In this document: positions 31,612 to 48,552 of the stretch, piece after piece
How the letters are laid out: every line of letters begins with the position of its first letter
Position numbering within the stretch: position 1 is the first letter of the stretch
NCBI GenBank assembly: GCA_963732795.1
Contig: CAVTAV010000003.1
Span: forward strand, 194,674 to 258,673
Source: an uncultured Alphaproteobacteria bacterium
GTDB lineage: Bacteria; Pseudomonadota; Alphaproteobacteria; CAVTAV01
Reading direction: 5' to 3'
DNA: 64,000 nucleotides
Program-made: the position numbers and the translations under genes
Notes under the pieces: model-generated
Told to the model about the DNA's origin: nothing
What the model saw: only the letters and a program-made list of their open reading frames with translations
Databases searched by the model: none

Positions 31612-32463
31612 CTATCTCCTCTCGCCGCCCAGCGACGCCAGATAGCGAGCAACGATGTTTAGCGCCAGGATTCCGATAGTGATGATCAAGGCGCCGCCCC
31701 AGGCCAATTCCTGCCAGTCGTCATAGGGACTCAAGGCCATCTGGTAGATGACCACCGGAAGATTGGCCATTGGCGCATTCATGTTGGTACTGAAGAACTG
31801 GTTGTTCAAGGCGGTGAACAGCAGCGGGGCCGTCTCGCCGGAAATCCGCGCCAGCGCTAGCAGCACGCCCGTGATCATGCCGTTGCGGGCGGCTCGATAG
31901 CAGACCGAGGAAATCACGCGCCACTTCGGTGTCCCCAGAGCAGATGCCGACTCCCGCAGCGTGTTGGGCACGAGATTCAGCATGTCTTCGGTCGTCCGGA
32001 CCACGACGGGAACCACGATGACGGCCAGCGCCATCCGCCGGCCCACGCCGAGAAATGGCCCATCGGCGCGACCATGATCTCGTAAATGAATATGCCGACG
32101 GCGATCGACGGGGCGCTCAGCAGGATGTCGTTTATGAAGCGCACGATCTGAGCGATCCTTTCCGACCTGCCGTATTCGGCCAGATAGGTGCCGGCCATGA
32201 TCCCGAGTGGCGTGCCGGTGACGATGCCCACCAGTGTCAGCATGATGCTGCCATAGATCGCGTTAAGCAGTCCGCCGGCTTCGCCGGGGGGTGGTGTCAT
32301 CTCAGTGAAGATCGACGGCTTGATTGCATCGAAGCCATTGATGAAGAGGGTCGCGAGGATAAGCGTGAGAATGAAAAGGCCGGTAGACGGTCGCGAACAA
32401 TGATAGCGACAACGCTACGACGTTCCGTACCTTGCGAGTGTGATAGCGTACGTTGTTCATCAT
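31612..32463 (-). CDS. pstA: Phosphate ABC transporter permease PstA (frame breaks)
   Basis: [41 protein letters not shown]. Confidence 0.92.
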
Positions 32464-33436
32464 CCACCTGCCTTCTTCTCGAGCCGCACCAGCATCAGCC
32501 GTGCGATGGCGAGCACGACGAAGGTGATGACGAACAGGAACAGGCCCAGCTCGATCAGCGACGCCGTATAGAGGTCGCCGATGGCCTCCGTGAATTCGTT
32601 GGCGATGGTGGCGGAGATCGTGGTGCCGGGCGCCAGGATCGACGCACTGATATGATGCGCGTTGCCGATCACGAAGGTGACCGCCATCGTCTCGCCGAGA
32701 GCGCGGCCGAGACCGAGCATGACGCCGCCGACAACACCGGTGCTGCAGAACGGCAGCACGACCTTCCAGACCACTTCCCAGGTTGTCGCGCCGACGCCAT
32801 AGGCGGATTCGCGAAGCATGGCAGGAACGGTCTCGAAGACGTCGCGCATGACCGAGGTGATGAAGGGCAGGATCATGATCGACAGTATCAGTCCGGCGGT
32901 CAGGATGCCGATGCCGTAGGGCGGGCCCTGGAACAGCGCGCCGATGATTGGCACGTTGCCGATTGTGTCGATCAGGAATGGCTGAACATAAATCTGCAGG
33001 AACGGGGCGAAGGAGAACAGGCCCCAGATGCCGTAAATGATGCTGGGAATGCCGGCCAAGAGCTCGATCGCGATGCCGAGCGGCCGCTTCAGCCAGCCGG
33101 GGCAAAGTTCGGTCAGGAAGATCGCGATGCCGAAGCTGACCGGTACTGCCACGATCATGGCGATGACCGATGTAACAAGTGTGCCGTAAATCGGCGCGAG
33201 GCCGCCCGAATTTCTCGGTGACAGGGTTCCACGCCTCGGTCAGCGAAGAAATCGAGCCCGAACGCCTTGATGGCGGGCATCGCGCCGAGCGTCAGGGAGA
33301 CGATGACGCCACCCAGGATCAGCAGAACGCCCCAGCCGGCCGCACGCGCGAGGAAGCCAAAAATCTTGTCGCCGGTTGCTCCGCTGCCCGAGCGTCGCGC
33401 GATGAGCTGTGGGGGAATGTCTGTTGCCGTGGACAC
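32460..33436 (-). CDS. pstC: Phosphate ABC transporter permease PstC (frame breaks)
   Basis: [32 protein letters not shown]. Confidence 0.93.
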
Positions 33437-33460
33437 CGGATTCTTTTCGAAAAGAGTAGC

Positions 33461-33492
33461 GGAAGGACCGGGAGGTTTCTCGCGGCCCTTCC
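33461..33492 (-). other. Intercistronic stem-loop between pstS and pstC
   Basis: GGAAGGGCCG...CGGTCCTTCC hairpin on the minus strand; likely an mRNA-stabilising element or partial terminator. Confidence 0.5.
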
Positions 33493-34759: not shown

Positions 34760-36066
34760 TCAGACGCGCGCGGATTCCGATTTAGGTATCGGAAATATAA
34801 CGGAAAATGTCGATCCGACGCCTTCCTTGCTCGTGACCGACAGAGCGCCCCGGTGACGGTTTACGATGTGTTTGACGATCGCGAGGCCGAGGCCGGTTCC
34901 GCCCAGTTCGCGCGACCGCGCCGAATTCCACGCGGTAAAACCGTTCCGTGAGTCGGGGGATATGCTCCTGGGCGATCCCGGGGCCATCGTCCTTGACCGC
35001 AACGATAACGGCGGGTCCCACGATCTGCGGTGCCGATTCCGCTGGCCGGGCCGAAACCTCCACCGTGCCGCCGGGCCGGCCGTATTTCACGGCATTGTCG
35101 ATAAGGTTTTGAAAAACCTCGATCAATTGGTCCCGGTCGCCAAGGATCTTCGGCAGACCTTCCTCGATTTTAAGAGTGACGGTGGCTTGGCGGCCGACGG
35201 CGCGAGGTTGGATCGTTTCCTTGACTCCCCTGAGGACCGCCCGCGAGATCGATCGGCGTGCTCGGCGGCGTATATTCGTCGAGCTCGATCCGTGAAAGCG
35301 ACAGCAGATCTCCGATTAGGCGGGTCATTCGGGCCGATTCGCGCTGCATGATGGCGAGAAATCGCGTGCGGGCCGCCTCATCCTTGCTGGCCGGCCCCTG
35401 TAGCGTCTCGATGAAGCCGACCAGGCTCGCAAGGGGCGTACGCAGCTCATGGCTGACATTGGCGACGAAATCCGCCCGCATCTGCTCGGCGTGTCGAATA
35501 TGGGTAATGTCATGGAGTGCGATCGCCGTGGTCAGGCGGTTGCGCGTGAGAATGCGTGGCGGCGCCGGCATACGCGGGTCCAACAATCTGGTCGCGCGAA
35601 GCAGATAGGTTCTAACCACTGCCCCCGGCACGTTGATTTCCGTGGATTGCTCCGGCCCTCCTGCATCCAGCACGTCGATGGCAGCCAAAGCAGCGGGCTG
35701 GCGCAAATGCAGGGCAATGTCATCTCCGGTGACCGGCCGCCCGAGGAAGGACTCCGCAGCCGAGTTGGCGAAGATGATGCGTCGATTCGAATCGAGGAGA
35801 AGGAACGGGTCCGTCAGGCCATTGAGAAGGGCGGTGCTGAAAACCGGTGATTCGTCGCCGGTATCCGTCGTGATCGTCGTTGTGACGGCGGCGGGCATAG
35901 CGGGTCTGGAGGCCGTGTTGAGCCAGCCCGCAGTGACGGCGCCAAGACTGGAAACAATAATGATCGTGGCCACCCAACCGTATGCGAGACCACCCGCGGC
36001 GCCGAGAATGAGCACAAGCACTTGAACCGCGAAGAGACCGATCAAGATTGAGCGAAGATGGGACAT
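34760..36066 (-). CDS. phoR: Sensor histidine kinase PhoR (frame breaks)
   Basis: Two N-terminal TMs, PAS, H-box [16 protein letters not shown]-box [27 protein letters not shown]. Confidence 0.9.
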
Positions 36067-36153
36067 GACCAGTAAACTAACTGCCCCGTGGCGTCCCGCA
36101 AGCTGGAAAATGTGTCCCGATTTGGTACGCCGACAACGGGCGGAAAGAAGAAA

Positions 36154-36707: not shown

Positions 36708-37001
36708 ATGGCCGAATCGGCGGTTAAGTGGGCGGCTTGCGATGGCGAGGCGCTCGTCTGGCGCGACTGGGATGACGGTTCCGCCGTCTATGACACTCGT
36801 TCCGGACAAACCCACATCCTCGATCTGGTCGGGCGGCTCGTGGTCGTCGAGCTCGGAGAGGCGCCCGCGTCCGTCCGGGAGCTCGCCGAGCGCGTAGCCG
36901 AAACCACGGGCGGCGCGCCGGATGCCCCTCTGCGTAACCAATTGCACACCTTATTGGGCGAATTAGAGCACCTCGGAATCATTGAGGTAATCGCCGCGTG
37001 A
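36708..37001 (+). CDS. PqqD-family peptide chaperone (RRE), HprK-related kinase A system
   Basis: 97 aa; WRDWDDGSAVYDTRSGQTHILD strands followed by helices ending LGELEHLGII. Confidence 0.85.
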   Translation: MAESAVKWAACDGEALVWRDWDDGSAVYDTRSGQTHILDLVGRLVVVELGEAPASVRELAERVAETTGGAPDAPLRNQLHTLLGELEHLGIIEVIAA

Positions 37002-37915
37002 GAGTGCAGGATCTCTCCGAAGACGACATCCAGCATCGGTTAAGGTCAGACGGGCTCTATTTCAGGCTCGGGGCCTTCACGACGCGCGTTCGCTCGGTCT
37101 ATCCGGCGATGGCGACCGACTTCCGCCGCCTCTATGGCGCCTGCGAGGTAGATACCCGGGACAGCGAGATCACCGACTTCTTCCTGAACCTTTATGCGCC
37201 GTCCCGAACCCGCAGCATCTTGCGGCCGCAGGTGATGGCGGATGTGGAAGGGCCGGGGCCGTTCATTCCTCTGCCGTCCAAGATGACGTTGCTGATGCTC
37301 GAGACGGCGATGAACTGGTGCGTCGCCTCGCGCGTCCGCTCGATGCTGCTGTTGCACTCCGCCGTGGTCGAAAAGAACGGCAGGGCGGTGATCCTCCCGG
37401 GCCAGTCCGGCTCGGGCAAGAGCACGCTCGCCGCGGCGCTGGTGGCGAATGGGTGGCGGCTTCTCTCCGACGAGTTCGCCTTGATCCGTATCTCCGATGG
37501 AGCCTTGGTGCCCTATCCCAGGCCGATCTCGCTCAAGAATGAATCGATCGAGCGAATGAAGGCGATGTTTCCCGACGGCACCTTCGTCGGCCCGTTCACC
37601 GACACGCCCAAGGGCACGATCGCCTATCTCGCCGCGCCGTCTTCCGCGATCGAGAACGATCAGGTCGCCGTGATGCCGCGCGCCGTCATCTTTCCGACCT
37701 ATGAAAGTGGCGCGTCCCTCAGATCCGACGAATGGCCAAAGGCGGCGGGGCTCGGGCGCATCGCCCTCTATTCGGTCAATTACACGCTGCTCGGCCGCGC
37801 CGGCTTTGAGGCGCTCGCCGACCTCGTCGACCGGTGCACCATCCGGACGGTTACCTATTCCAGCCTCGACGACGCCATCGGCTTCGTCGAGGACACGGTC
37901 GGAACGGAGGCCTGA
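36998..37915 (+). CDS. HprK-related kinase A
   Basis: LHSAVVEKNG, Walker A GQSGSGKST, LLSDE, PRPISLKN, TPKGTIAY; GTGA overlap with the PqqD gene. Confidence 0.9.
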   Translation: MRVQDLSEDDIQHRLRSDGLYFRLGAFTTRVRSVYPAMATDFRRLYGACEVDTRDSEITDFFLNLYAPSRTRSILRPQVMADVEGPGPFIPLPSKMTLLMLETAMNWCVASRVRSMLLLHSAVVEKNGRAVILPGQSGSGKSTLAAALVANGWRLLSDEFALIRISDGALVPYPRPISLKNESIERMKAMFPDGTFVGPFTDTPKGTIAYLAAPSSAIENDQVAVMPRAVIFPTYESGASLRSDEWPKAAGLGRIALYSVNYTLLGRAGFEALADLVDRCTIRTVTYSSLDDAIGFVEDTVGTEA

Positions 37916-37918
37916 GCG

Positions 37919-39064
37919 ATGACCATCCGCCGGCCCCCGGTTCCGGGTCTCGACGTCTTTCTGGACGCCCTCACTCGGCCCGAGACAATGGAGCGTCTGA
38001 AGCCCGTCGAATGGAACGACGTGCTCCGCTTCGCCCGGCAGACCGCGCTGGTCGCCCGGCTGGGCTATCTCGCCCGCGAGGCCGGGATATGGGAGCGTAT
38101 CCCGGAAAAAGCCCGGCAGCATTTCGACTCCGCCGCCGTCATCTCCCGCGACAATCAGCGGATGATCCGCTTCGAGGTTGCAAGGATCGCCGATACGCTC
38201 GCCCATGCCGACGTTCCCTTCGCCCTGCTGAAGGGTGCGGCCTATGTCTGGTCCGGGCTCGACATGTCCCGTGACCGGCTGTCCTCCGACATCGATGTTC
38301 TCGTCGCCCACCGCGACCTCGACGCCGCCGAAGCGGCCGTGAAGCTCGCGGGCTGGGTGCCGATGAAGGGGGAGGATGATTACGACGACTATTATTATCG
38401 CGCCTGGATGCACGAATTGCCGCCGCTCCGCCATCGCGACAGCAACACCGTCATCGATATCCATCACACGATCCTGCCGGTAACGAGCCGTCTGCATCCC
38501 GATCCGGCGCTGCTGCTCGGAGAGATGGTCCCGATCGAGGGCGGGCGGCTGCATGTTCTCGCGCCGAAGGACATCGTTCTCCACGCCGCGGCCCATCTGT
38601 TCTATGACGGCGACTTCGATCGCAGGCTGCGTGACCTTTACGACCTCGACCGACTGCTCGCGCATTTCGGCGAGCGGCCCGGCTTCTGGGATGCCCTTGT
38701 GCGCCGCGCCGACATTCTCAATCTGACACGGCCGCTGTTCTATACGCTCAGATACTGCGCGGCGCTTCTCGGCACGCCGGTTCCGTCAAGCGTGACCGAG
38801 CGTCTCGCCCCAAGCGCGCCGTCCGCTCTTGCGCTCTTCGCGATGGACCGTCTGGTGCCCAGGGTGATCATGCCTCGTAATGCAGACTATCCGAGCCGGC
38901 TGACCTCGTTTGCGGCGCTTCTTCTCTATATTCGGTCGCACTGGCTGAAGATGCCGCCGATGCTGCTGGCGCGGCACTTGCTGCGGAAGGCCTTCAAGCG
39001 GGTCGGATTCGGCGCGGGAGCCGAGGGGACGATGCCCGATGGCCGAAAGGTTTCCCAGCACTAA
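37919..39064 (+). CDS. Nucleotidyltransferase family protein (NTP_transf_5-like)
   Basis: LLKGAAY, SSDIDVLV, YYRAWMHELPP, IDIHH, LRDLYDL, YIRSHWLKMP. Confidence 0.88.
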   Translation: MTIRRPPVPGLDVFLDALTRPETMERLKPVEWNDVLRFARQTALVARLGYLAREAGIWERIPEKARQHFDSAAVISRDNQRMIRFEVARIADTLAHADVPFALLKGAAYVWSGLDMSRDRLSSDIDVLVAHRDLDAAEAAVKLAGWVPMKGEDDYDDYYYRAWMHELPPLRHRDSNTVIDIHHTILPVTSRLHPDPALLLGEMVPIEGGRLHVLAPKDIVLHAAAHLFYDGDFDRRLRDLYDLDRLLAHFGERPGFWDALVRRADILNLTRPLFYTLRYCAALLGTPVPSSVTERLAPSAPSALALFAMDRLVPRVIMPRNADYPSRLTSFAALLLYIRSHWLKMPPMLLARHLLRKAFKRVGFGAGAEGTMPDGRKVSQH

Positions 39065-39859: not shown

Positions 39860-40516
39860 ATGCTTGATCTTAAAGCCAGAATCGATCTCGCCTCGCTGTT
39901 GTCCTCGCGCATTTGCCACGATCTGATCAGTCCGGTCGGCGCTTTGTCGAATGGGATCGAAATCCTGTCCGAGGAATGCGACGACGACATGCGCGACCAG
40001 ACGATCGCGCTTCTCGCCCACAGCGCGACAGAAGCGACGGGACGATTGCAGCTCCTGCGGCTGGCCTTTGGCGGCTCGACCTCGCTCGGCGGCATGATCG
40101 GGCTTGGCGACGCGGAAACCGCGCTCAAGGAATATCTGACGACGACCAAGGTCTCGCTCGACTGGCAGGCGGGGGTCGAAGCCCTGCCCAAGCAGGCCAT
40201 GAAGCTGTTGCTTAACATGGCTCTGGTCGCCACCGAATGCATCATCAGGGCGGGAACCCTGACTGTTCATGCCGCAATTCAGCCGGACGGCGTGCTTCTC
40301 GCAGCGACCGCATCGGGCGACCGGATCATGGTGTCCGACGATATCGCGGCGATCTTCGATGGCACCGCCGGCGACGACGCGATCGATGCCCGCTCGGTGC
40401 CGGCCCTCCTGGCGGTGATGCTGGCCGAGGAAATCGGCGGACGCATTGCCTGGGAACGGGGCCCCAACCGGGAGCTGGTCATCAAGGCCGGGCTGCCGCA
40501 AACGGCAGTTTCCTGA
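39860..40516 (+). CDS. chpT: Histidine phosphotransferase ChpT
   Basis: LLSSRICHDLISPVGALSNGIE, RLAFG, KLLLN; degenerate ATPase domain. Confidence 0.93.
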   Translation: MLDLKARIDLASLLSSRICHDLISPVGALSNGIEILSEECDDDMRDQTIALLAHSATEATGRLQLLRLAFGGSTSLGGMIGLGDAETALKEYLTTTKVSLDWQAGVEALPKQAMKLLLNMALVATECIIRAGTLTVHAAIQPDGVLLAATASGDRIMVSDDIAAIFDGTAGDDAIDARSVPALLAVMLAEEIGGRIAWERGPNRELVIKAGLPQTAVS

Positions 40517-40581: not shown

Positions 40582-40668
40582 CGGCATTCGATCGGGCCTT
40601 CCCTGGTGCCGATCCTCGCACCGTGTCGCTGGCCAGTCTTTTGCCCCGAACCCCGATACACAGCCGCC

Positions 40669-43600
40669 ATGGATGATCTTCTAAGCGAATTCGTCACCGA
40701 GACCGTCGAGAGCCTCGACGTGGCGAATGTCGAGCTCGTCAAGCTGGAGCGCGACCCGAACGACCACGACACCCTGAGCAATATCTTCCGTCTGGTCCAC
40801 ACCATCAAGGGAACCTGCGGGTTCCTCGGGCTGCCGCGCCTTCAAGCGATCGCCCATGCCGGCGAGAACGTGCTCGGCCTGTTCCGCGACGGGAAGCTCG
40901 AAGTCACCCAGGACGCCGTAACGCTTGTCCTGGAATGCCTCGACCGCATCCGTGCCATCGTCGACCATCTCGAGCGGACCTCGTCCGAGCCCGACGGCGA
41001 CGACGAGGATTTGATCGCCCAACTCGACCAGATCGCGAAAGGCGAGCGCGTGTCGGCCGCTCCCGAAGCGGTCGAAGAGGTCGAGATTTTCGAAAGCGAG
41101 ACGGTCGAGGAGCAGGCGCCCGTTCAGGTTCCCGTCGCTTCGACCGAAGACGGCGAGAGTCTGTTCAAGCAGATCGGCGGCCCCCTCGGCATCGACGCCG
41201 TGGTCGATCTTCTGTTCGAGCGGCTGGTCGGCGATCCGGTGTTCCGGCCGTTTTACGGCAAGGTCGATATCGCGGCTCTAAAGCTCAAATATGCGTCCTA
41301 TCTGACGGCTGCCTTGGGAGGTCCGCAGCGCTATACGGGCAAATCCCTGGCCAAAGCCCATGAAGGCGTGCGCGCGGGGGGCGTTCTCGCCGGCCATATG
41401 GAGGCGTTCCTGGACTATCTCCGCCAGGCCATGGACGATTTCGAAATCCCTGAGGACGTTGCGAATTCCGTCGTGACGGTCGTCGCCTCAACCCGCGAGG
41501 ATGTTCTCGGCTCGTCGACGACGACTGCGCCCAAGCCGAAGCCGGCGAAGATCGAAGCCGCGGCGCCGACGGAATCCCAGCCGAATGCGCCAGCGTCGAA
41601 GCCGGCCGATCCGCCCGTCCATCAGGAAACGGCGACGTCGGAATCCTCGGTCGCCAATCAGACGATCCGCGTGAACGTCGACGTTCTCGAAGACCTCATG
41701 ACCATGGTCAGCGAGATGGTGCTGACGCGGAACCAGCTTATGCAGATGGTCCGCCGGCTCGACGACAGCGAATTCAACGGCCCGCTGCAGCGTCTCAACC
41801 AATGCACCACCGAGCTGCAGGAAGCGGTCATGAAGACCCGCATGCAACCGATCGGCAATGCCTGGGCCAAGCTGCCCCGGATCGTCCGCGACCTCGGCCG
41901 CGATCTCGGCAAGAAGATCGAGCTGAAGATGCGCGGCGCCGAGACCGAGCTCGACCGCCAGGTCCTTGAGTTGATCAAGGATCCGCTGACCCATATGGTC
42001 CGCAACTCCGCCGATCACGGGTTGGAGACGGTCGAGGGTCGCCTGGAGGCCGGCAAGTCCGAGATGGGCTATATCCAGCTCAACGCATTCCACGAGGGTG
42101 GCCATATCATCATCGAGATCTCCGACGACGGCCGCGGCCTCGATATCGACCGGATCAAGAAGAAGATCATCGCCAACGGGCTTGTCGGCGAGGCCGAGGC
42201 CCAGGCGATGTCGGACCAGCAGGTCCAGCGCTACATTTTCCACGCGGGCCTCTCGACGGCCGAGGCTGTGACCAATGTTTCCGGCCGCGGCGTCGGCATG
42301 GATGTCGTCCGGACCAATATCGAGAAGATCGGCGGCACGATCGATCTCAAGTCCGAGCGCGGCAAGGGCACCAAATTCATGATCAAGATTCCGCTGACGC
42401 TCGCGATCGTCTCGGCCTTGATCGTCCAGAGCGGCGGTGAGCGCTTCGCGATCCCGCAGCTCAGCGTGGTCGAGCTCGTCCGCGCCGGCGGCACGTCGGG
42501 CAACAAGATCGAGCATGTCAACAAGACGCCGGTTCTGCGGCTCCGCGATCAGCTTCTGCCGCTGGTGCATCTGCGCGACGTTCTCGGCCTACCGCCCAAG
42601 CCGGCCGAGAGCCAAGCCGTCGAGCCCGCCGAAGCGGCGAATAACGGGGTGGTCACCGGCGGCCGTCAGCGCCGCAAGGGCGGCAACGAGGACTATGTGG
42701 TCGTCACCCAGGTCGGCAACTTCACCTATGGCATCGTGGTCGATCAGGTCTACGACACCGAGGAGATCGTGGTGAAGCCGGTCGCGCGGATCCTGCGGAA
42801 TCTCTCGATCTATTCCGGCAACACGATCCTCGGCGACGGCAGCGTCATCATGATCCTCGACCCGAACGGGATTGCCGCCAAGACGGGCGATATTCAAATC
42901 GGCAGTCGGGATACCGGCGACGACGCGGTCGCCAAGCGGTCCTCGCATCACGACGCGATGTCGCTCCTGGTGTTCAAGGTCGCCGAGCAGGCGCCCAAGG
43001 CCGTGCCGCTCGCTCTCGTTGCCCGGCTCGAGAATGTCGACGTCACGACGATCGAGCACACCGAGACCGGCGACTTCGTGCAGTATCGCGGCGGCCTGAT
43101 GCCCATTCTGCGCTACAGCGACAATGCGAGCCTCAAGACCGAAGGGCTGCAGCCGGTTCTGGTCTTTTCCGACGAGGATCAGACCATGGGACTTGCGGTC
43201 GACGAGATCATCGACGTCGTCGAGCAGTCCCTTTCCATCGAGATGGCGTCCTCGCGTCCCGGGCGTGCTCGGTACGGCGGTGATCGGCGGCCACGCCACC
43301 GAGGTGATCGACGTCTCCCATTTCCTTGCGAGGGCCTACCCGAACTGGTTCCGCAAGCAGAGCAGGGCGAGCGGACGCTCGGGCAAGGGCGCCAAGCTTC
43401 TGGTCGTCGACGACAGCTCGTTCTTCCGCGGTCTCCTGGAGCCGCTGCTCTCTCGCGCCGGCTACGAGGTCACGGCCGTTGCGAATGCCGAGGAGGCCCT
43501 GGACGTTCTCGAAAGTGGCGAGAGCTTCGATCTCATCGTCAGCGATATCGAGATGCCGGGCATGGATGGCTTCGATTTCGCCAGCCGGGTCAAGGGCGAC

Positions 43601-43768
43601 TCGCGCTGGCAATCGACGCCGATGGTCGCGCTCTCCTCCTATTCCGCGGAGCCCGACCTCGCGCGCGGAAAGTCGGTCGGTTACAGCGATTACGTCCCGA
43701 AATTCGATAGGGAGGCCCTGATGGTGTGCCTCTCCCGTGTGTTGTCCAGACATGAGGAAGCAGCATGA
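40669..43768 (+). CDS. cheA: Hybrid chemotaxis kinase CheA (Hpt - truncated globin - dimerisation - HATPase - 2xCheW - REC); frame break near 43262
   Basis: FRLVHTIKG, HMVRNSADHG, DDGRG, SGRGVGMDVV, IPLTLAI; REC domain VVDDS...SDIEMPGMDG in the second frame. Confidence 0.95.
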
Positions 43769-44260
43769 GTTTTGCGGCCCAGCATAACGAAGCGAACCAA
43801 AAAGGGGCGGATGGCGACGCCACGGCGCGAACCCTGGTGACGATGACCATCGCCAACCAGTTGCTGGGCATACCGGTCTCGGCCGTGCATGACGTGCTCG
43901 GGCCTCAAAAGCTGACGAGCATACCGCTTGCCCCGGACTCGGTGGCCGGCGCGCTCAATCTCCGCGGCCGGATCGTGACTGCGGTGGATGTGCGCAAGAG
44001 GCTCGGTCTCGAGGATCGCGCGGACGAGGACCCGGCGATGAGCGTCGTCGTCGAGCATGACGGCGAGCCCTACAGCCTGATCATCGACACGGTGGGCGAG
44101 GTGTCTGAGCATTCCCGAGGATCGGTTGGAGCGCAATCCGCCGACCCTCGATCCGCGTTGGCGCGCCGTGTCGGACGGAATCTTCAGGCTCGACGACCAG
44201 CTTCTCGTGGTGCTCGAGGTCGATCGGCTTTTGGAATTGGGCACGGAGCTTGCGGCATGA
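43765..44260 (+). CDS. cheW: Chemotaxis coupling protein CheW (frame break near 44105)
   Basis: IPLAP, GALNLRGRIVTAVD; the repaired end reads ...LLVVLEVDRLLELGTELAA. Confidence 0.92.
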
Positions 44261-44324: not shown

Positions 44325-44690
44325 ATGAAGTCATGTCTCGTTGTTGACGATTCCAAAGTCATAAGAAAAGTCGCTCGCCGAATCCTCGAAGAGCTCAACT
44401 TCGACATCGTCGAGGCTGAGGACGGTCAGCAGGCGCTGAACCGCTGCAAGGAGCGCATGCCGGACGTCGTGCTCCTGGACTGGAACATGCCGGTCATGGA
44501 CGGCCTGTCATTCCTCCGGCGGCTCAGGGGCACCGACGGCGGGGAAGCGCCCATCGTCGTCTTCTGCACCACCGAGAACGACATCGCGCATATTCGGGCC
44601 GCGCTTGAGGCCGGCGCGAACGAATACATTATGAAGCCCTTCGATCGCGACATCATAGAGGCGAAGTTCACGCAAGTCGGACTGATGTAG
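44325..44690 (+). CDS. cheY: Chemotaxis response regulator CheY
   Basis: MKSCLVVDDS, LLDWNMPVMDG, CTTEN, YIMKPFD. Confidence 0.93.
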   Translation: MKSCLVVDDSKVIRKVARRILEELNFDIVEAEDGQQALNRCKERMPDVVLLDWNMPVMDGLSFLRRLRGTDGGEAPIVVFCTTENDIAHIRAALEAGANEYIMKPFDRDIIEAKFTQVGLM

Positions 44691-45848
44691 ATGTCCTCTA
44701 ACAACGCGTTCTCAAAGGGGAAGCGTTACCGGACACCGGCCCGATAAGAGTGATGGTCGTCGACGATTCGGCGGTCATCCGGGGGCTGGTCCGGCAATGG
44801 CTCGAAGCCGATCCCGACATCGAGGTCGTCTTCACGGCGGCCAACGGCAAGACGGCCGTGGCCAATGTCGTGGAAAGCGGCGCCGAGGTGGTCATCCTCG
44901 ATATCGAGATGCCGATCATGGACGGCATGGCCGCCCTGCCGCTGCTGCTGAAGGCGGCGCCGGGCGTCAAGGTCCTGATCGCCTCGACCTTGACCGTCCG
45001 CAACGCCGAAATCAGCCTGACCGCGCTCTCACGCGGCGCGGCCGACTATATCCCGAAGCCCCAGGCCATCCGCGACGTCTCGGGCGCGCCCGAATTCCGC
45101 CGCGAAGTCCTGACCAAGGTCAAGGTCGCTGGGCGAGGCGCGCCGTCGGGCGCGGGCCAGCCAGACCGCGCGACTCGAGCGCAAGCCGACCGCCGCTCCG
45201 GTCGCTGCGCCGGCCCCTGCGATCCCCGGGAAAGCCAAGACTCCCTTGCGGGCGGTATCGCCGATCCGGCCGAACGTCGTTGCGATCGGCAGCTCGACGG
45301 GCGGCCCCCAGGCGTTGTTCAAGGTTCTGACGGCGCTGCCGACGAGCTTCGATCTGCCGGTGCTGATCACCCAGCACATGCCGGCGACCTTCACCGCCAT
45401 CCTGGCCGATCATCTCGGCCGCGCCTGCGGACGGCCGTGCCACGAAGTCGCGGGCGGCGAGGCCGTCACTAACGGCCATGTCTATGTCGCGCGGGGCGGC
45501 CATCACTTGGTGGTCGAGAAGCATGGTGCCGGCGTCGCCATTCGGCTCGACGACGGGCCGCTGGAGAATTTCTGCCGGCCGGCGGTCGATCCGATGCTGC
45601 GCAGCATTGCGGCGGTCTATGGCCCGGCCGCGCTCGGCGTCATCCTCACCGGGATGGGCAATGACGGGCTGAAGGGCGGCGAGACCCTGGTGAACGCCGG
45701 CGGCAATCTGATCGCCCAGGACGAGGCATCGAGCGTCGTCTGGGGGATGCCCGGCTCCGTCGCTAATGCGCATCTCTGCTGCGCCATCCTCAATATCGAA
45801 GAAATGGCGCCCGCGATCGCGCGCGTCGCTGCGGGAGCGAAGCTATGA
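44691..45848 (+). CDS. cheB: Chemotaxis methylesterase CheB (frame breaks; start approximate)
   Basis: REC domain plus GSSTGGP, TQHMP, RPAVD, LTGMGNDG, VVWGMPG. Confidence 0.93.
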
Positions 45849-46669
45849 AGCCGGCGGATTTCGAGCTGTTGAGCGGCATGCTCCGGTCCCGGTCGGGCCT
45901 CGTGCTCTCGAAGGACAAGGTCTATCTCCTGGAAACGCGCCTGATGCCGGTCGCGCGCAAACGGGGCCTGGAGAACGTCGAGGCGCTGGTCGAGGAGGTG
46001 CGCACCAAGAAGGAAGAGCCCCTGTTCCGTGACATCACCGAGGCGATGACCACGAACGAGACCTTCTTCTACCGCGACAACAAGCCGTTCGACACCTTCC
46101 GCGACGACATCCTGCCCCACCTCATTCAGGCCCGGGAGCAGCGCAAGACGATCCGTATCTGGTGCGCCGCCGCCTCGACGGGGCAGGAGCCTTATTCGCT
46201 CTGCATGATCCTGAAGGAAGCGGCCGCCAAGCTGAACGGCTGGCGCATCGAGATCATCGCGACCGATCTGTCGAGCGAGGTTTTGGAAAAGGCCAAGGTC
46301 GGGCTTTACTCCCAGTTCGAGGTCCAACGCGGCCTGCCGATCACCCATCTCGTCAAATACTTCAAGCAGGTCGGTGAGCTGTGGCAGATCGACGAATCGA
46401 TCCGCTCCATGGTGAGCTTCCGCGAGCTCAATCTGATGGACGATTTCTCGCGGCTCGGCATGTTCGACCTGATCATGTGCCGCAACGTGCTGATCTATTT
46501 CGACCAGGAGACCAAGAACAGCGTGCTCGAAAGGGTCGCCCAGGTCATGCCGTCCGACGGCCGCCTGATCCTCGGCGCGGCGGAGACCGTGATCGGCGTC
46601 TCCGACAAGTTCAAGCCGGTCCCCAACCAACGCGGCGTCTACGCGCTGGCCCAGCCGACCAAGCACTAG
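45845..46669 (+). CDS. cheR: Chemotaxis methyltransferase CheR
   Basis: TTNETFFYRD, IWCAAASTGQEPYS, CRNVLIYFD. Confidence 0.96.
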   Translation: MKPADFELLSGMLRSRSGLVLSKDKVYLLETRLMPVARKRGLENVEALVEEVRTKKEEPLFRDITEAMTTNETFFYRDNKPFDTFRDDILPHLIQAREQRKTIRIWCAAASTGQEPYSLCMILKEAAAKLNGWRIEIIATDLSSEVLEKAKVGLYSQFEVQRGLPITHLVKYFKQVGELWQIDESIRSMVSFRELNLMDDFSRLGMFDLIMCRNVLIYFDQETKNSVLERVAQVMPSDGRLILGAAETVIGVSDKFKPVPNQRGVYALAQPTKH

Positions 46670-46747: not shown

Positions 46748-47650
46748 ATGAGCGTCATGGCCGAGGACATTGAGGATAGCGTCCGGACGATCGAGGCGGA
46801 GATCAACTATCTTCTGCCGGGTCCCGAGATCAACCGCCGTTTCGTCAGCGCCGGGGTCGAGGTGAACACCGGCAGTTACGGTCCCTTCAAGGTCAAGATC
46901 CGCGATGGCCGGGCGATCAAGCGGCATTTCACGCTCGATACCCACGGCTTCGTGCTCGCCGACATCCCGAGCGCCGTGACGGACTTCTACGACAAGGATG
47001 AGGTGGATCGCCTCTATATGGACGAGGTTGCCGCCGGCGTGAAGACGCTGACCGGCGCGGATTTCGTCGTGCCGATGGGCTGGATGGTGCGCAATTCAGG
47101 CGATATCTCGAAATATCAGAATAAGCAGGAGGGGCCCTATACCCATGCCGGCGGCGTCCAGCCTCCGGCGGGCGAGGCCCATATCGACACCGAGCCGAGC
47201 CGCGCCGACCGCCAGGCCCGTGCCCTATACGAGAAGTTCCGGCCGGACGGCCCCGGCTACAAGCGCTTCATCTATTCGAGCTTCTGGCGCTGCTTCTCCG
47301 AGCCGCCCCAGGACTGCCCGCTCGCCGTCTGCGACCACCGCAGCGTCGGCGACGACGAGGGCGTGCCGAACGTGCTCTATATCGTCGACAAGATCCCGGA
47401 GGGCGACGAAATGTTCGCCCCCATGCCCGACGCCGACCAGCCGGCCGCCGCAATCTTCCGTTACAATCCCGATCACCGCTGGTGGTACTTCTCCAACATG
47501 ACCCGCGACGAGGCCATCCTGATCAAGTTCCACGATTCCGACCACACCGTCGCCTGGCGCACGCCCCACACGGCCTTCTGGGACATGAGCTTCCCGAACT
47601 CCAAAACCCGCGCCAGCATCGAATGCCGCTCGTTGGCGTTTTTCGAATAA
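46748..47650 (+). CDS. CmcJ/NvfI/AsaB-like oxidoreductase
   Basis: FTLDTHGF, AHID, PLAVCD, HRWWYFSNMT, TPHTAF, RASIECR. Confidence 0.8.
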   Translation: MSVMAEDIEDSVRTIEAEINYLLPGPEINRRFVSAGVEVNTGSYGPFKVKIRDGRAIKRHFTLDTHGFVLADIPSAVTDFYDKDEVDRLYMDEVAAGVKTLTGADFVVPMGWMVRNSGDISKYQNKQEGPYTHAGGVQPPAGEAHIDTEPSRADRQARALYEKFRPDGPGYKRFIYSSFWRCFSEPPQDCPLAVCDHRSVGDDEGVPNVLYIVDKIPEGDEMFAPMPDADQPAAAIFRYNPDHRWWYFSNMTRDEAILIKFHDSDHTVAWRTPHTAFWDMSFPNSKTRASIECRSLAFFE

Positions 47651-47832: not shown

Positions 47833-48552
47833 TCAGGCAGCCGCGCTTGATGCTTTCGGCTGGCTCTGGGTCTCTTCGACCGGGTCGCGCAAAACATAAC
47901 CGCGGCCCCAGACGGTCTCGATATAGTTCTGACCGTTGGTCGCCGCGGCGAGCTTCTTGCGTAATTTGCAGATAAAAACGTCGATGATTTTGAGTTCCGG
48001 CTCGTCCATGCCCCCATAGAGATGGTTGAGGAACATTTCCTTGGTGAGGGTCGTGCCCTTGCGCAAGGAGAGGAGCTCCAGCATCCCGTATTCCTTGCCG
48101 GTGAGATGGACCCGCTGCCCTTCGACCTCGACTGTCTTGGTGTCGAGATTGACGCTCAGCTTGCCGGTCCGGATCACCGATTGGGAATGACCCTTCGAGC
48201 GGCGGATGATGGCGTGGATGCGCGCGACCAGCTCGTCCTTGTGGAACGGCTTGGTCAGATAATCGTCGGCGCCGAAGCCCAGCCCCTTCACTTTGTTGTC
48301 GAGCTGACTCATGCCTGACAGGATCAGAGTGGGCGTGTCGACCTTGGAAAGACGAAGCTTCTTGAGAACGTCGTACCCGTGCATGTCGGGCAGGTTCAGA
48401 TCAAGAATAATGATGTCGTAATCATACAGCTTACCAAGATCCAGGCCTTCTTCACCGAGATCCGTACAATAGATATTGAAGCCTTCGGCAGCCAGCATGA
48501 GCTCGATGCTCTTGGCTGTCGCCGAATCGTCTTCAATCAACAGAACCCTCAT
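47833..48552 (-). CDS. ctrA: Cell-cycle master regulator CtrA
   Basis: [60 protein letters not shown]; ends in AA. Confidence 0.97.

Follow-up and report, generated by a model that had tools for sequence, protein, structure and literature searches.

Chemotaxis kinases are usually held to be blind, with signals reaching CheA via receptors. A cheA gene in the 64,000-nucleotide stretch of DNA analysed here (the window), from contig CAVTAV010000003.1 of an uncultured alphaproteobacterium, raises the question of whether such a kinase can carry a sensory domain of its own. A preliminary description, made from the letters of the sequence, had placed a truncated, group I-like globin between the Hpt and dimerisation domains of this CheA, with no frame break, and had proposed that the kinase senses O2, NO or redox directly through haem, bypassing receptors. 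We find that the segment at 41155-41514 is a genuine group I (trHbN-type) truncated-haemoglobin (trHb) domain, in frame between P1 and P3 of CheA. As judged from sequence, globin-bearing CheA is a variant on the globin-coupled sensing theme that is common, does not bypass receptors and may sense through haem. The physiological roles of truncated haemoglobins are still debated, and a haem domain inside CheA would place a sensory input at the level of the kinase and give these proteins a type of output that is new to them.

A globin domain between P1 and P3 of CheA

The globin peptide quoted in the preliminary description was found at its place, and the open reading frame (ORF) 40606..43710 on the forward strand crosses it without a stop. 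The comparison with PF01152 suggested there gave a Bac_globin match on ORF residues 185-300 (nt 41158-41505) with an E-value of 9.9e-12 and 45.5 bits, above the curated Pfam cut-off of 21; the same stretch scored 50.2 bits when the genome was searched with PF01152. Among Protein Data Bank (PDB) chains the top sequence matches were group I proteins, C. reinhardtii THB1 (3.9e-16) and M. tuberculosis HbN (7e-15). Group I chains as a whole lay between 3.9e-16 and 1e-7, and group II chains (Geobacillus, T. fusca, HbO) between 2e-5 and 2e-3. Structure prediction, also suggested in the preliminary description, returned the 2/2 globin fold: the AlphaFold2 (AF2) model of the domain, for which 22 sequences were aligned, had a mean predicted local distance difference test score (pLDDT) of 92 and a predicted template-modelling score of 0.85, and its best Foldseek matches were all group I trHbs (TMq 0.86-0.90, root-mean-square deviation 1.0-1.4 Å). 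The Pfam match lies within the 41155-41514 first proposed. Contigs from three public DNA runs spanned the globin stretch free of gaps. The Protoglobin family (PF11563) had no Pfam match in the window CheA; the CheA globin is of the T family and internal, and it may act like a globin-coupled sensor without belonging to that family. ORFs that overlap the region or run antisense to it (e.g. 41488..42570 on the reverse strand) were taken as by-products of high G+C.

The kinase that holds the globin is a CheA-REC hybrid with the domain order P1 - linker - trHb - linker - P3 - P4 - P5 - second CheW-like stretch - REC. Its parts, all on the forward strand, are the following.

40669..43768 (+): cheA, encoding a CheA-REC hybrid (Pfam; orthologues; contigs of three public runs)
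40675..40956 (+): P1, the Hpt domain, with the phospho-accepting His in HTIKG (Pfam Hpt, E 5.1e-17, ORF residues 24-117)
40957..41154 (+): acidic linker 1, predicted disordered (composition, pLDDT)
41155..41514 (+): group I truncated-haemoglobin (2/2) domain (Pfam, PDB sequence search, AF2, Foldseek)
41515..41655 (+): Ala/Pro-rich linker 2, predicted disordered (composition, pLDDT)
41656..41838 (+): P3 dimerisation domain (Pfam H-kinase_dim, E 9.4e-16, ORF residues 351-411)
41980..42399 (+): P4 ATP-binding kinase domain (Pfam HATPase_c, E 3.3e-16, ORF residues 459-598)
42415..42876 (+): P5 CheW-like domain (Pfam CheW, E 8.7e-31, ORF residues 604-757)
42964..43227 (+): second, weaker CheW-like stretch between P5 and REC (PF01584 genome search, 31.2 bits; Pfam, 2 CheW stretches)
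43400..43723 (+): C-terminal REC of CheA, in the +1 frame in the window (Pfam Response_reg, E 1.2e-21 on 43262-43768)

The probable start is the ATG at 40669, where all orthologues begin. Counted from it, HTIKG lies at residue 44, and H44 was invariant in 21/21 sequences of the CheA alignment (A1). The description of the flanks as an acidic and a Pro/Ala linker was borne out by their composition (13 E and 7 D among the 66 residues of linker 1; 10 A and 9 P among the 48 of linker 2). In the full-length AF2 model the mean pLDDT of 10-residue blocks was mostly 77-90 in the globin and fell below 50 on either side of it, at residues 129-155 and 282-336; a low-complexity loop in P5 (residues 647-672) was likewise predicted to be disordered, with pLDDT <50. 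As modelled, the globin hangs like a bead between two flexible tethers, with a topology that resembles that of P2 in E. coli-type CheA. The CheA proteins of E. coli and T. maritima share with the window CheA the P1, P3, P4 and P5 domains and a folded bead on flexible linkers. Their bead is the CheY-binding P2, whereas that of the window CheA is the globin, and the window CheA has in addition the extra CheW-like stretch and REC. No P2 family (presumably PF07194) was reported by Pfam in the window CheA at E up to 1, nor, at E up to 0.001, in 6-7 other scanned proteins, of which five were CheA homologues. Globin-less orthologues have a bare linker at this point. The earlier statement that the globin stands in place of P2 is supported.

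One extra base near 43261, in a CCCGGG run, shifts the last ~168 codons of cheA, including the receiver, into the next frame; intact CheA orthologues of two congeners have 1033 aa (genome G001) and 1030 aa (G002). In the contigs of three public short-read runs, drawn from three studies, one base is missing at each of 43261, 44105 and 45128, and an extra G stands behind 44716. Because the in-frame version occurs in all three independent DNA runs, the frame breaks of the window cheA, cheW and cheB are consensus errors. Frame changes were also seen in three unrelated genes upstream (31615-32448, 32466-33484 and 34781-36102). The assembly is 81% complete in 11 contigs, and its other genes should be read with caution over single-base indels.

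Haem pocket and a possible mode of sensing

The hallmarks of a group I trHb named in the preliminary description, the GG after helix A, LGGPxxYTG and the proximal His, are all present. The Gly-Gly hinges (G12-G13, G59-G60) and H73 are conserved in the globin alignment (A2), and the codon of the proximal His F8 (HisF8) was confirmed in the window. What had been left unchecked was TyrB10, which is absent, its place being taken by Phe. The pocket positions were assigned by alignment with a check of each codon, B10 by alignment to HbN and to CheA globins.

41215-41217 (+): B10 Phe
41254-41256 (+): CD1 Tyr
41278-41280 (+): E7 Leu
41287-41289 (+): E10 Lys
41290-41292 (+): E11 Tyr
41359-41361 (+): F8 His
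41407-41409 (+): G8 Phe

Residue E14 is Tyr as well (alignment to HbN and related CheA globins). The 2/2 fold, the GG hinges, LGGPxxYTG and HisF8 are common to the window globin and the group I trHbs HbN, THB1, Synechocystis GlbN and those of Tetrahymena and Paramecium, which are free-standing, whereas the window globin is embedded in a kinase of ~1030 residues. LeuE7 and LysE10 are shared with HbN. The two differ at E11 and G8 (Gln and Val in HbN, Tyr and Phe in the window globin) and at B9-B10 (Phe-Tyr in HbN, Leu-Phe in the window globin), and the window globin has Tyr at CD1. According to excerpts of one source (PMC4720485), ~80% of truncated haemoglobins have TyrB10, the residue from which bound O2 receives its chief hydrogen bond, ~15% have Tyr at CD1, and the short tunnel is closed off where G8 is Phe or Trp. 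The pocket of the window globin thus looks aromatic and crowded, with possible donors shifted to CD1 and E11. Its apolar PheB10/PheG8 pair suggests weak stabilisation of O2, a different ligand or a redox role. Six positions (B10 Phe, CD1 Tyr, E7 Leu, E11 Tyr, F8 His and G8 Phe) were identical in 6/6 distinct genus-type sequences (P0002-P0007), despite a globin domain identity across the three genomes of the genus of only 56-63%; E10 varied among them, with Thr in one sequence.

The reading that we favour, at chances that we would call about even, is that the domain holds haem through HisF8, that the ligand or redox state of the haem alters docking of the globin or the reach of P1 toward P4, and that an O2, NO or redox input is thereby added to a receptor-controlled CheA. 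The globin would probably bind haem b through the proximal HisF8. A change of haem state (O2-, NO- or CO-bound, or ferric versus ferrous) would change docking of the globin on P1, or the reach of P1 relative to P4, and through either change autophosphorylation or phosphotransfer would be adjusted. In this way gas or redox state in the cytoplasm would join, as an input, the control exerted by arrays of methyl-accepting chemotaxis proteins (MCPs) and CheW and by CheB/CheR adaptation, with aerotaxis or energy taxis of the flagellated cell as the expected result. Because both tethers are predicted to be disordered, the haem state would not be passed on through a rigid helix, and the models make a rigid helical relay as in globin-coupled sensors unlikely. 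The ligand, the effect on the kinase and the docking mechanism are inferences. Complex predictions of the globin with P1, with P3-P4 and with CheY did not separate control from test and count neither for nor against binding.

HemAT and the globin-coupled sensors also join a globin to a chemotaxis or two-component output, and HemAT, as stated in the parts of PMC13401364 consulted, mediates aerotaxis through CheA. In HemAT-type proteins, however, an N-terminal globin of the 3/3 S family is linked by a helix to a receptor, whereas the window protein has an internal 2/2 T-family globin on disordered tethers in the kinase CheA itself. Those parts of PMC13401364, a 2026 review of aerotaxis, make no mention of truncated globins. 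A 2020 review, again as far as the sections consulted go, lists T2 and T3 globins as the chimeric T globins of bacteria and T1 chimeras in eukaryotes only (PMC7475203). The nearest counterpart is a Bac_globin-PAS-MCP receptor of Corallococcus coralloides, predicted in silico and proposed, in the portion of PMC6194562 consulted, to provide an aerotaxis input. There the PF01152-type globin sits on the receptor, whereas in the window it sits on the kinase; both are known from sequence only. One of our loci encodes the same globin-PAS-MCP architecture as the C. coralloides receptor (L041:2971-5829, 953 aa). No description of a CheA with a globin was found in literature searches of open-access text, with subscription papers and supplementary tables outside their range, and a kinase-embedded group I truncated haemoglobin in CheA is apparently undescribed in print.

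Distribution and evolution of globin-bearing CheA

The preliminary description had implied that the architecture is rare. A word-indexed protein search, which returned 2 proteins among 1421 candidates, gave the same impression, and wider searches of the class and of CheA homologues overturned it. Globin and CheA were fused in 3/3 genomes of the family/order. Among 401 sampled genomes of the class, 60 had a globin match at E <= 1e-8, and in 24 of the 401 (the window genome included), spread over 14 family codes, the globin lay inside CheA, as established by reading the frames and by tblastn with CheA domains. One further class genome (locus L060) held a broken remnant of a globin-CheA. With an intact congener CheA as query, PF01152 appeared in the precomputed Pfam lists of 114 of the best 120 of at least 8000 homologues, and of the other 6, 3 had a globin-like domain by our own globin profile; the source names of these 120 proteins were just CheA, CheW or hybrid kinase. 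A look at domain architectures therefore leaves one half of the earlier expectation standing: the arrangement is common, and a characterised example was not found in the open literature.

A scan of species-representative genomes, from which the best 80 CheA loci were analysed, showed how the P1-P3 linker varies among relatives. It was globin-like in 17/80 loci (two of them weakly), with linkers of 176-229 residues. The other 63, which include Thalassospira, Azospirillum, Sneathiella and Stellaceae, had a bare linker, mostly of 70-150 residues; the Azospirillum and Thalassospira CheA orthologues of the analysed set, unlike the window CheA, have no globin. A search of 1.84 billion representative sequences with a profile made from the globin alignment gave 9115 matches at E <= 0.001, and the best 150 were mostly proteins with 2-14 globin stretches. 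When a canonical CheA globin was compared with plasmids by tblastn, 39 records matched; the 30 of them that were listed were annotated as stand-alone group 1 truncated haemoglobins or were unannotated at the match.

Globins were also met at other points of chemotaxis proteins. Some CheAs have a second trHb inside P5 (P0012, residues 696-811, equivalent to L042:2893-6453, and also P0011, P0021 and P0026), and the insertion point is the loop that is low in complexity and predicted to be disordered in the window CheA. P0008 has two tandem globins in the P1-P3 linker (residues 161-399), and L062:3567-4625 encodes a CheW of 353 aa with a C-terminal globin.

The history of the insert was followed on a FastTree phylogeny of the CheA core with 103 rows (23 globin-selected loci together with the best 80 less L051, which was too short), a choice of loci by which fractions are biased. 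Presence of the globin required at least 11 changes on this tree, 5 of them forced by well-supported branches. The window genus fell in a clade with support 97 in which all 13 rows have the insert: 2 are canonical (TyrB10/HisF8), 4 are genus-type and 7 are without HisF8. A tree of the globins alone was poorly resolved (duplicate loci, crude length classes) and was not used. HisF8 was missing in 6/25 class-sample genomes, the remnant included. Degenerate globin-like domains with neither HisF8 nor TyrB10 were noted at L080 and L084 (Kordiimonas), L082 (Eilatimonas), L085 and L092 (Emcibacter) and L091 (Hypericibacter), and one scanned Kordiimonas domain is no longer recognised by Pfam. Because haem-competent and HisF8-less forms both occur, the family is a natural series for gain of a sensor, rewiring and reduction to a scaffold, and the degenerate CheA globins of named species could serve as natural haem-free controls.

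The alternative that survives best, unlikely on balance and the one that we take most seriously, is that the globin is a haem-independent spacer or docking bead, similar to P2, which might set the length of the tether or bind CheY, CheB or another partner and would sense neither gas nor redox state. Several observations speak for it and, by the same token, weigh against haem sensing. HisF8 was absent from 53/127 homologous domains, with Phe instead in 33 and Lys in 9, and from 12/17 globin-bearing loci of the best 80. In the clade of the window genus itself the 7/13 rows without it are the Kordiimonas, Eilatimonas and Emcibacter rows, related lineages with degenerate domains, and two further metagenome-assembled genomes, and its loss there indicates that the position tolerates a haem-free domain. 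The 63 loci with a bare linker do without any domain at this place. The globin evolves, by these estimates, faster than the kinase core: the ratio of nonsynonymous to synonymous rates (dN/dS) within the genus was 0.33-0.35 for the globin, a relaxed value, compared with 0.02-0.06 for Hpt, 0.01-0.03 for P3, 0.07-0.16 for P4 and 0.32-0.69 for the linkers, all rough values with dS near saturation. The long disordered tethers hold the globin much as they hold P2 and offer no obvious rigid path for a signal. Against haem sensing there are also features of the pocket: the hallmark PheB9-TyrB10 pair is replaced by Leu-Phe (41212-41217), likewise in 6/6 distinct genus-type sequences, and with Phe at both B10 and G8 binding of O2 may be weak or the ligand something else. 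Pfam and fold matches, moreover, cannot show cofactor binding, and we infer haem binding of the window globin from the residues that it retains.

These residues are the main argument against a mere spacer. Within the genus HisF8 and five further pocket positions have stayed unchanged while the rest of the domain diverged, and the domain still has the hinge and EF motifs seen in haem-binding trHbs. The repeated fusion of canonical TyrB10/HisF8 globins to CheA, CheW and MCP proteins would also be easier to understand if the ancestral role was sensing. The proposal of direct haem sensing of O2, NO or redox is weakened: HisF8, the hinges and the fold are kept, but TyrB10 is absent and HisF8 has been lost in many homologues, so haem sensing is not to be assumed for the CheA-globin family and is at most probable for the window protein.

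The chemotaxis locus, its receptors and CtrA

The genes around cheA bear on two further claims of the preliminary description, that the cluster is set between chpT and ctrA and that the kinase bypasses receptors. They were assigned as follows.

39860..40516 (+): chpT (Pfam PF10090, E 8.7e-28, 97 bits against a cut-off of 22.9)
43765..44260 (+): cheW, with an extra base near 44105 (Pfam CheW, E 3.1e-20; frame change against 164-aa orthologues)
44325..44690 (+): cheY, 121 aa (Pfam Response_reg, E 1.9e-30; 93-96% identical to congeners)
44690..45848 (+): cheB, start approximate, indel errors at 44716 and 45128 (Pfam CheB_methylest, E 7.5e-60; frame change against the 383-aa orthologue)
45845..46669 (+): cheR (Pfam CheR, E 3.4e-60; CheR_N, E 3.5e-9)
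46748-47650 (+): CmcJ/NvfI-family oxidoreductase between cheR and ctrA (NCBIfam, 265.7 bits against a cut-off of 80)
47833..48552 (-): ctrA (NCBIfam CtrA equivalog, 429 bits against a cut-off of 350; 98.7% identical to congeners)

The flanking genes were rightly named, with chpT upstream and ctrA downstream by Pfam and NCBIfam. The chpT gene is the single HPTransfase match of the genome; against the NCBIfam ChpT equivalogs it scored 184.9 and 148.3 bits, both under the cut-off. The CheA-REC form and the order cheA-cheW-cheY-cheB-cheR are shared with Magnetospirillum gryphiswaldense cheOp1, which the parts of PMC12442639 consulted identify as an F5 pathway required for aerotaxis. The order chpT-cheA(REC)-cheW-cheY-cheB-cheR-ctrA, with ctrA on the opposite strand, is kept across many alphaproteobacterial families. 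We take Rhodospirillum centenum Che1 to be the same operon type; the F5 label (classes of Wuichet and Zhulin) is our assumption for the window locus, with which the gene order agrees. The globin-CheAs L036, L044 and L045 and the Brevundimonas group belong to another cluster type, with cheY upstream and an MCP gene downstream.

It was correct that no MCP gene lies in the window: no MCP signalling domain was found in its 64 kb, and both MCP matches of the genome, a PAS-MCP of 550 aa and an MCP of 332 aa, are on contig 11. The step from there to a kinase that bypasses receptors did not hold. The window CheA is the sole H-kinase_dim match in its genome, and one CheA was found in each of two congeners as well. 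This sole CheA has retained a P5/CheW-like domain, its gene is followed by cheW, cheB and cheR, all CheW-domain matches of the genome fall in this che locus, and MCP genes number 2 in this incomplete genome, 4 in a 98%-complete congener and 7 in the other. Together these features indicate a complete chemotaxis pathway built to work with receptors, and the globin is more likely an added kinase-level input than a bypass of them. Flagellin and FliM genes are present in the genome. The lineage is known from metagenome-assembled genomes only; as no CheA other than the globin-bearing one was found in it, any effect of the globin should show in behaviour.

The position of the cluster admits a second alternative, which we consider improbable: that the locus is a second entry to the CtrA phosphorelay, in which phosphate would pass from the REC of CheA to ChpT and on to CtrA, and signals from chemoreceptors and globin would set the master regulator of motility and cell cycle. 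The chpT gene, of which the genome has this one copy, is the immediate upstream neighbour of cheA, in the same orientation, in 63/80 of the best loci, with or without a globin, and ctrA follows cheR wherever the flank is long enough, globin or not. The best NCBIfam matches of the CheA REC were receivers of hybrid kinases that feed an HPt (BarA, 86.5 bits; TorS, 80.3 bits), all far below their cut-offs, as was CckA (49.0 bits). The synteny is explained equally well by control of motility and chemotaxis genes by CtrA, as described in the part of PMC13392355 consulted. The chpT-che-ctrA locus is, moreover, unchanged in globin-less orthologues, so the synteny is uninformative on the globin, and transfer from REC to ChpT is a hypothetical step. 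What we take to be the full CtrA box (TTAA-N7-TTAA) had 0 matches in the 64-kb window. A literature search judged by titles and abstracts found no description of the chpT-che-ctrA arrangement. In a combined form, which we regard as a long shot, the haem domain would gate the sole CheA and, through REC and ChpT, also CtrA, and gas or redox and receptors would jointly set swimming and the cell-cycle regulator. If true, the CckA-ChpT-CtrA relay would have a second input of chemotaxis type, one that is conserved across Alphaproteobacteria.

That the globin is a tethered enzyme, which as an NO dioxygenase or a scavenger of O2 would protect or condition the chemosensory array, seems to us quite improbable. 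Its closest solved relatives do include M. tuberculosis HbN, a potent NO dioxygenase according to the portion of PMC3493545 consulted, but the TyrB10/GlnE11 pair of HbN is Phe and Tyr in the window globin, no reductase family matched among the cluster genes scanned with Pfam, one globin per kinase molecule would make a poor catalyst pool, and this globin type was found fused to signalling proteins only. An assembly error or a degenerating che cluster is next to negligible as an explanation and is refuted for the fusion itself: although the window cheA, cheW and cheB each have a frame change and the genome is incomplete and fragmented, three unrelated upstream genes are shifted as well, the four che indel sites (43261, 44105, 44716 and 45128) are in frame in 3/3 independent DNA runs, and the fusion is intact in both congeners and many other genomes.

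A contig from a salt-marsh metatranscriptome showed zero differences over 41428-41615, which takes in the end of the globin and linker 2; since DNA can occur in such libraries, it hints only weakly at expression. Seven sequencing runs, all labelled salt marsh metagenome, contained at least half of the window's sampled words, and three compared salt-marsh runs matched the window at ~99%. Among the retrieved loci, tblastn with the CmcJ/NvfI-family gene matched the two congener loci only. Upstream of chpT, the two genes at 36998-39064 (+) gave a weak, sub-cut-off match resembling the C-terminal part of HPr kinase and a match to NTP_transf_5 (E 1.7e-50), and both genes are present in two congeners too.

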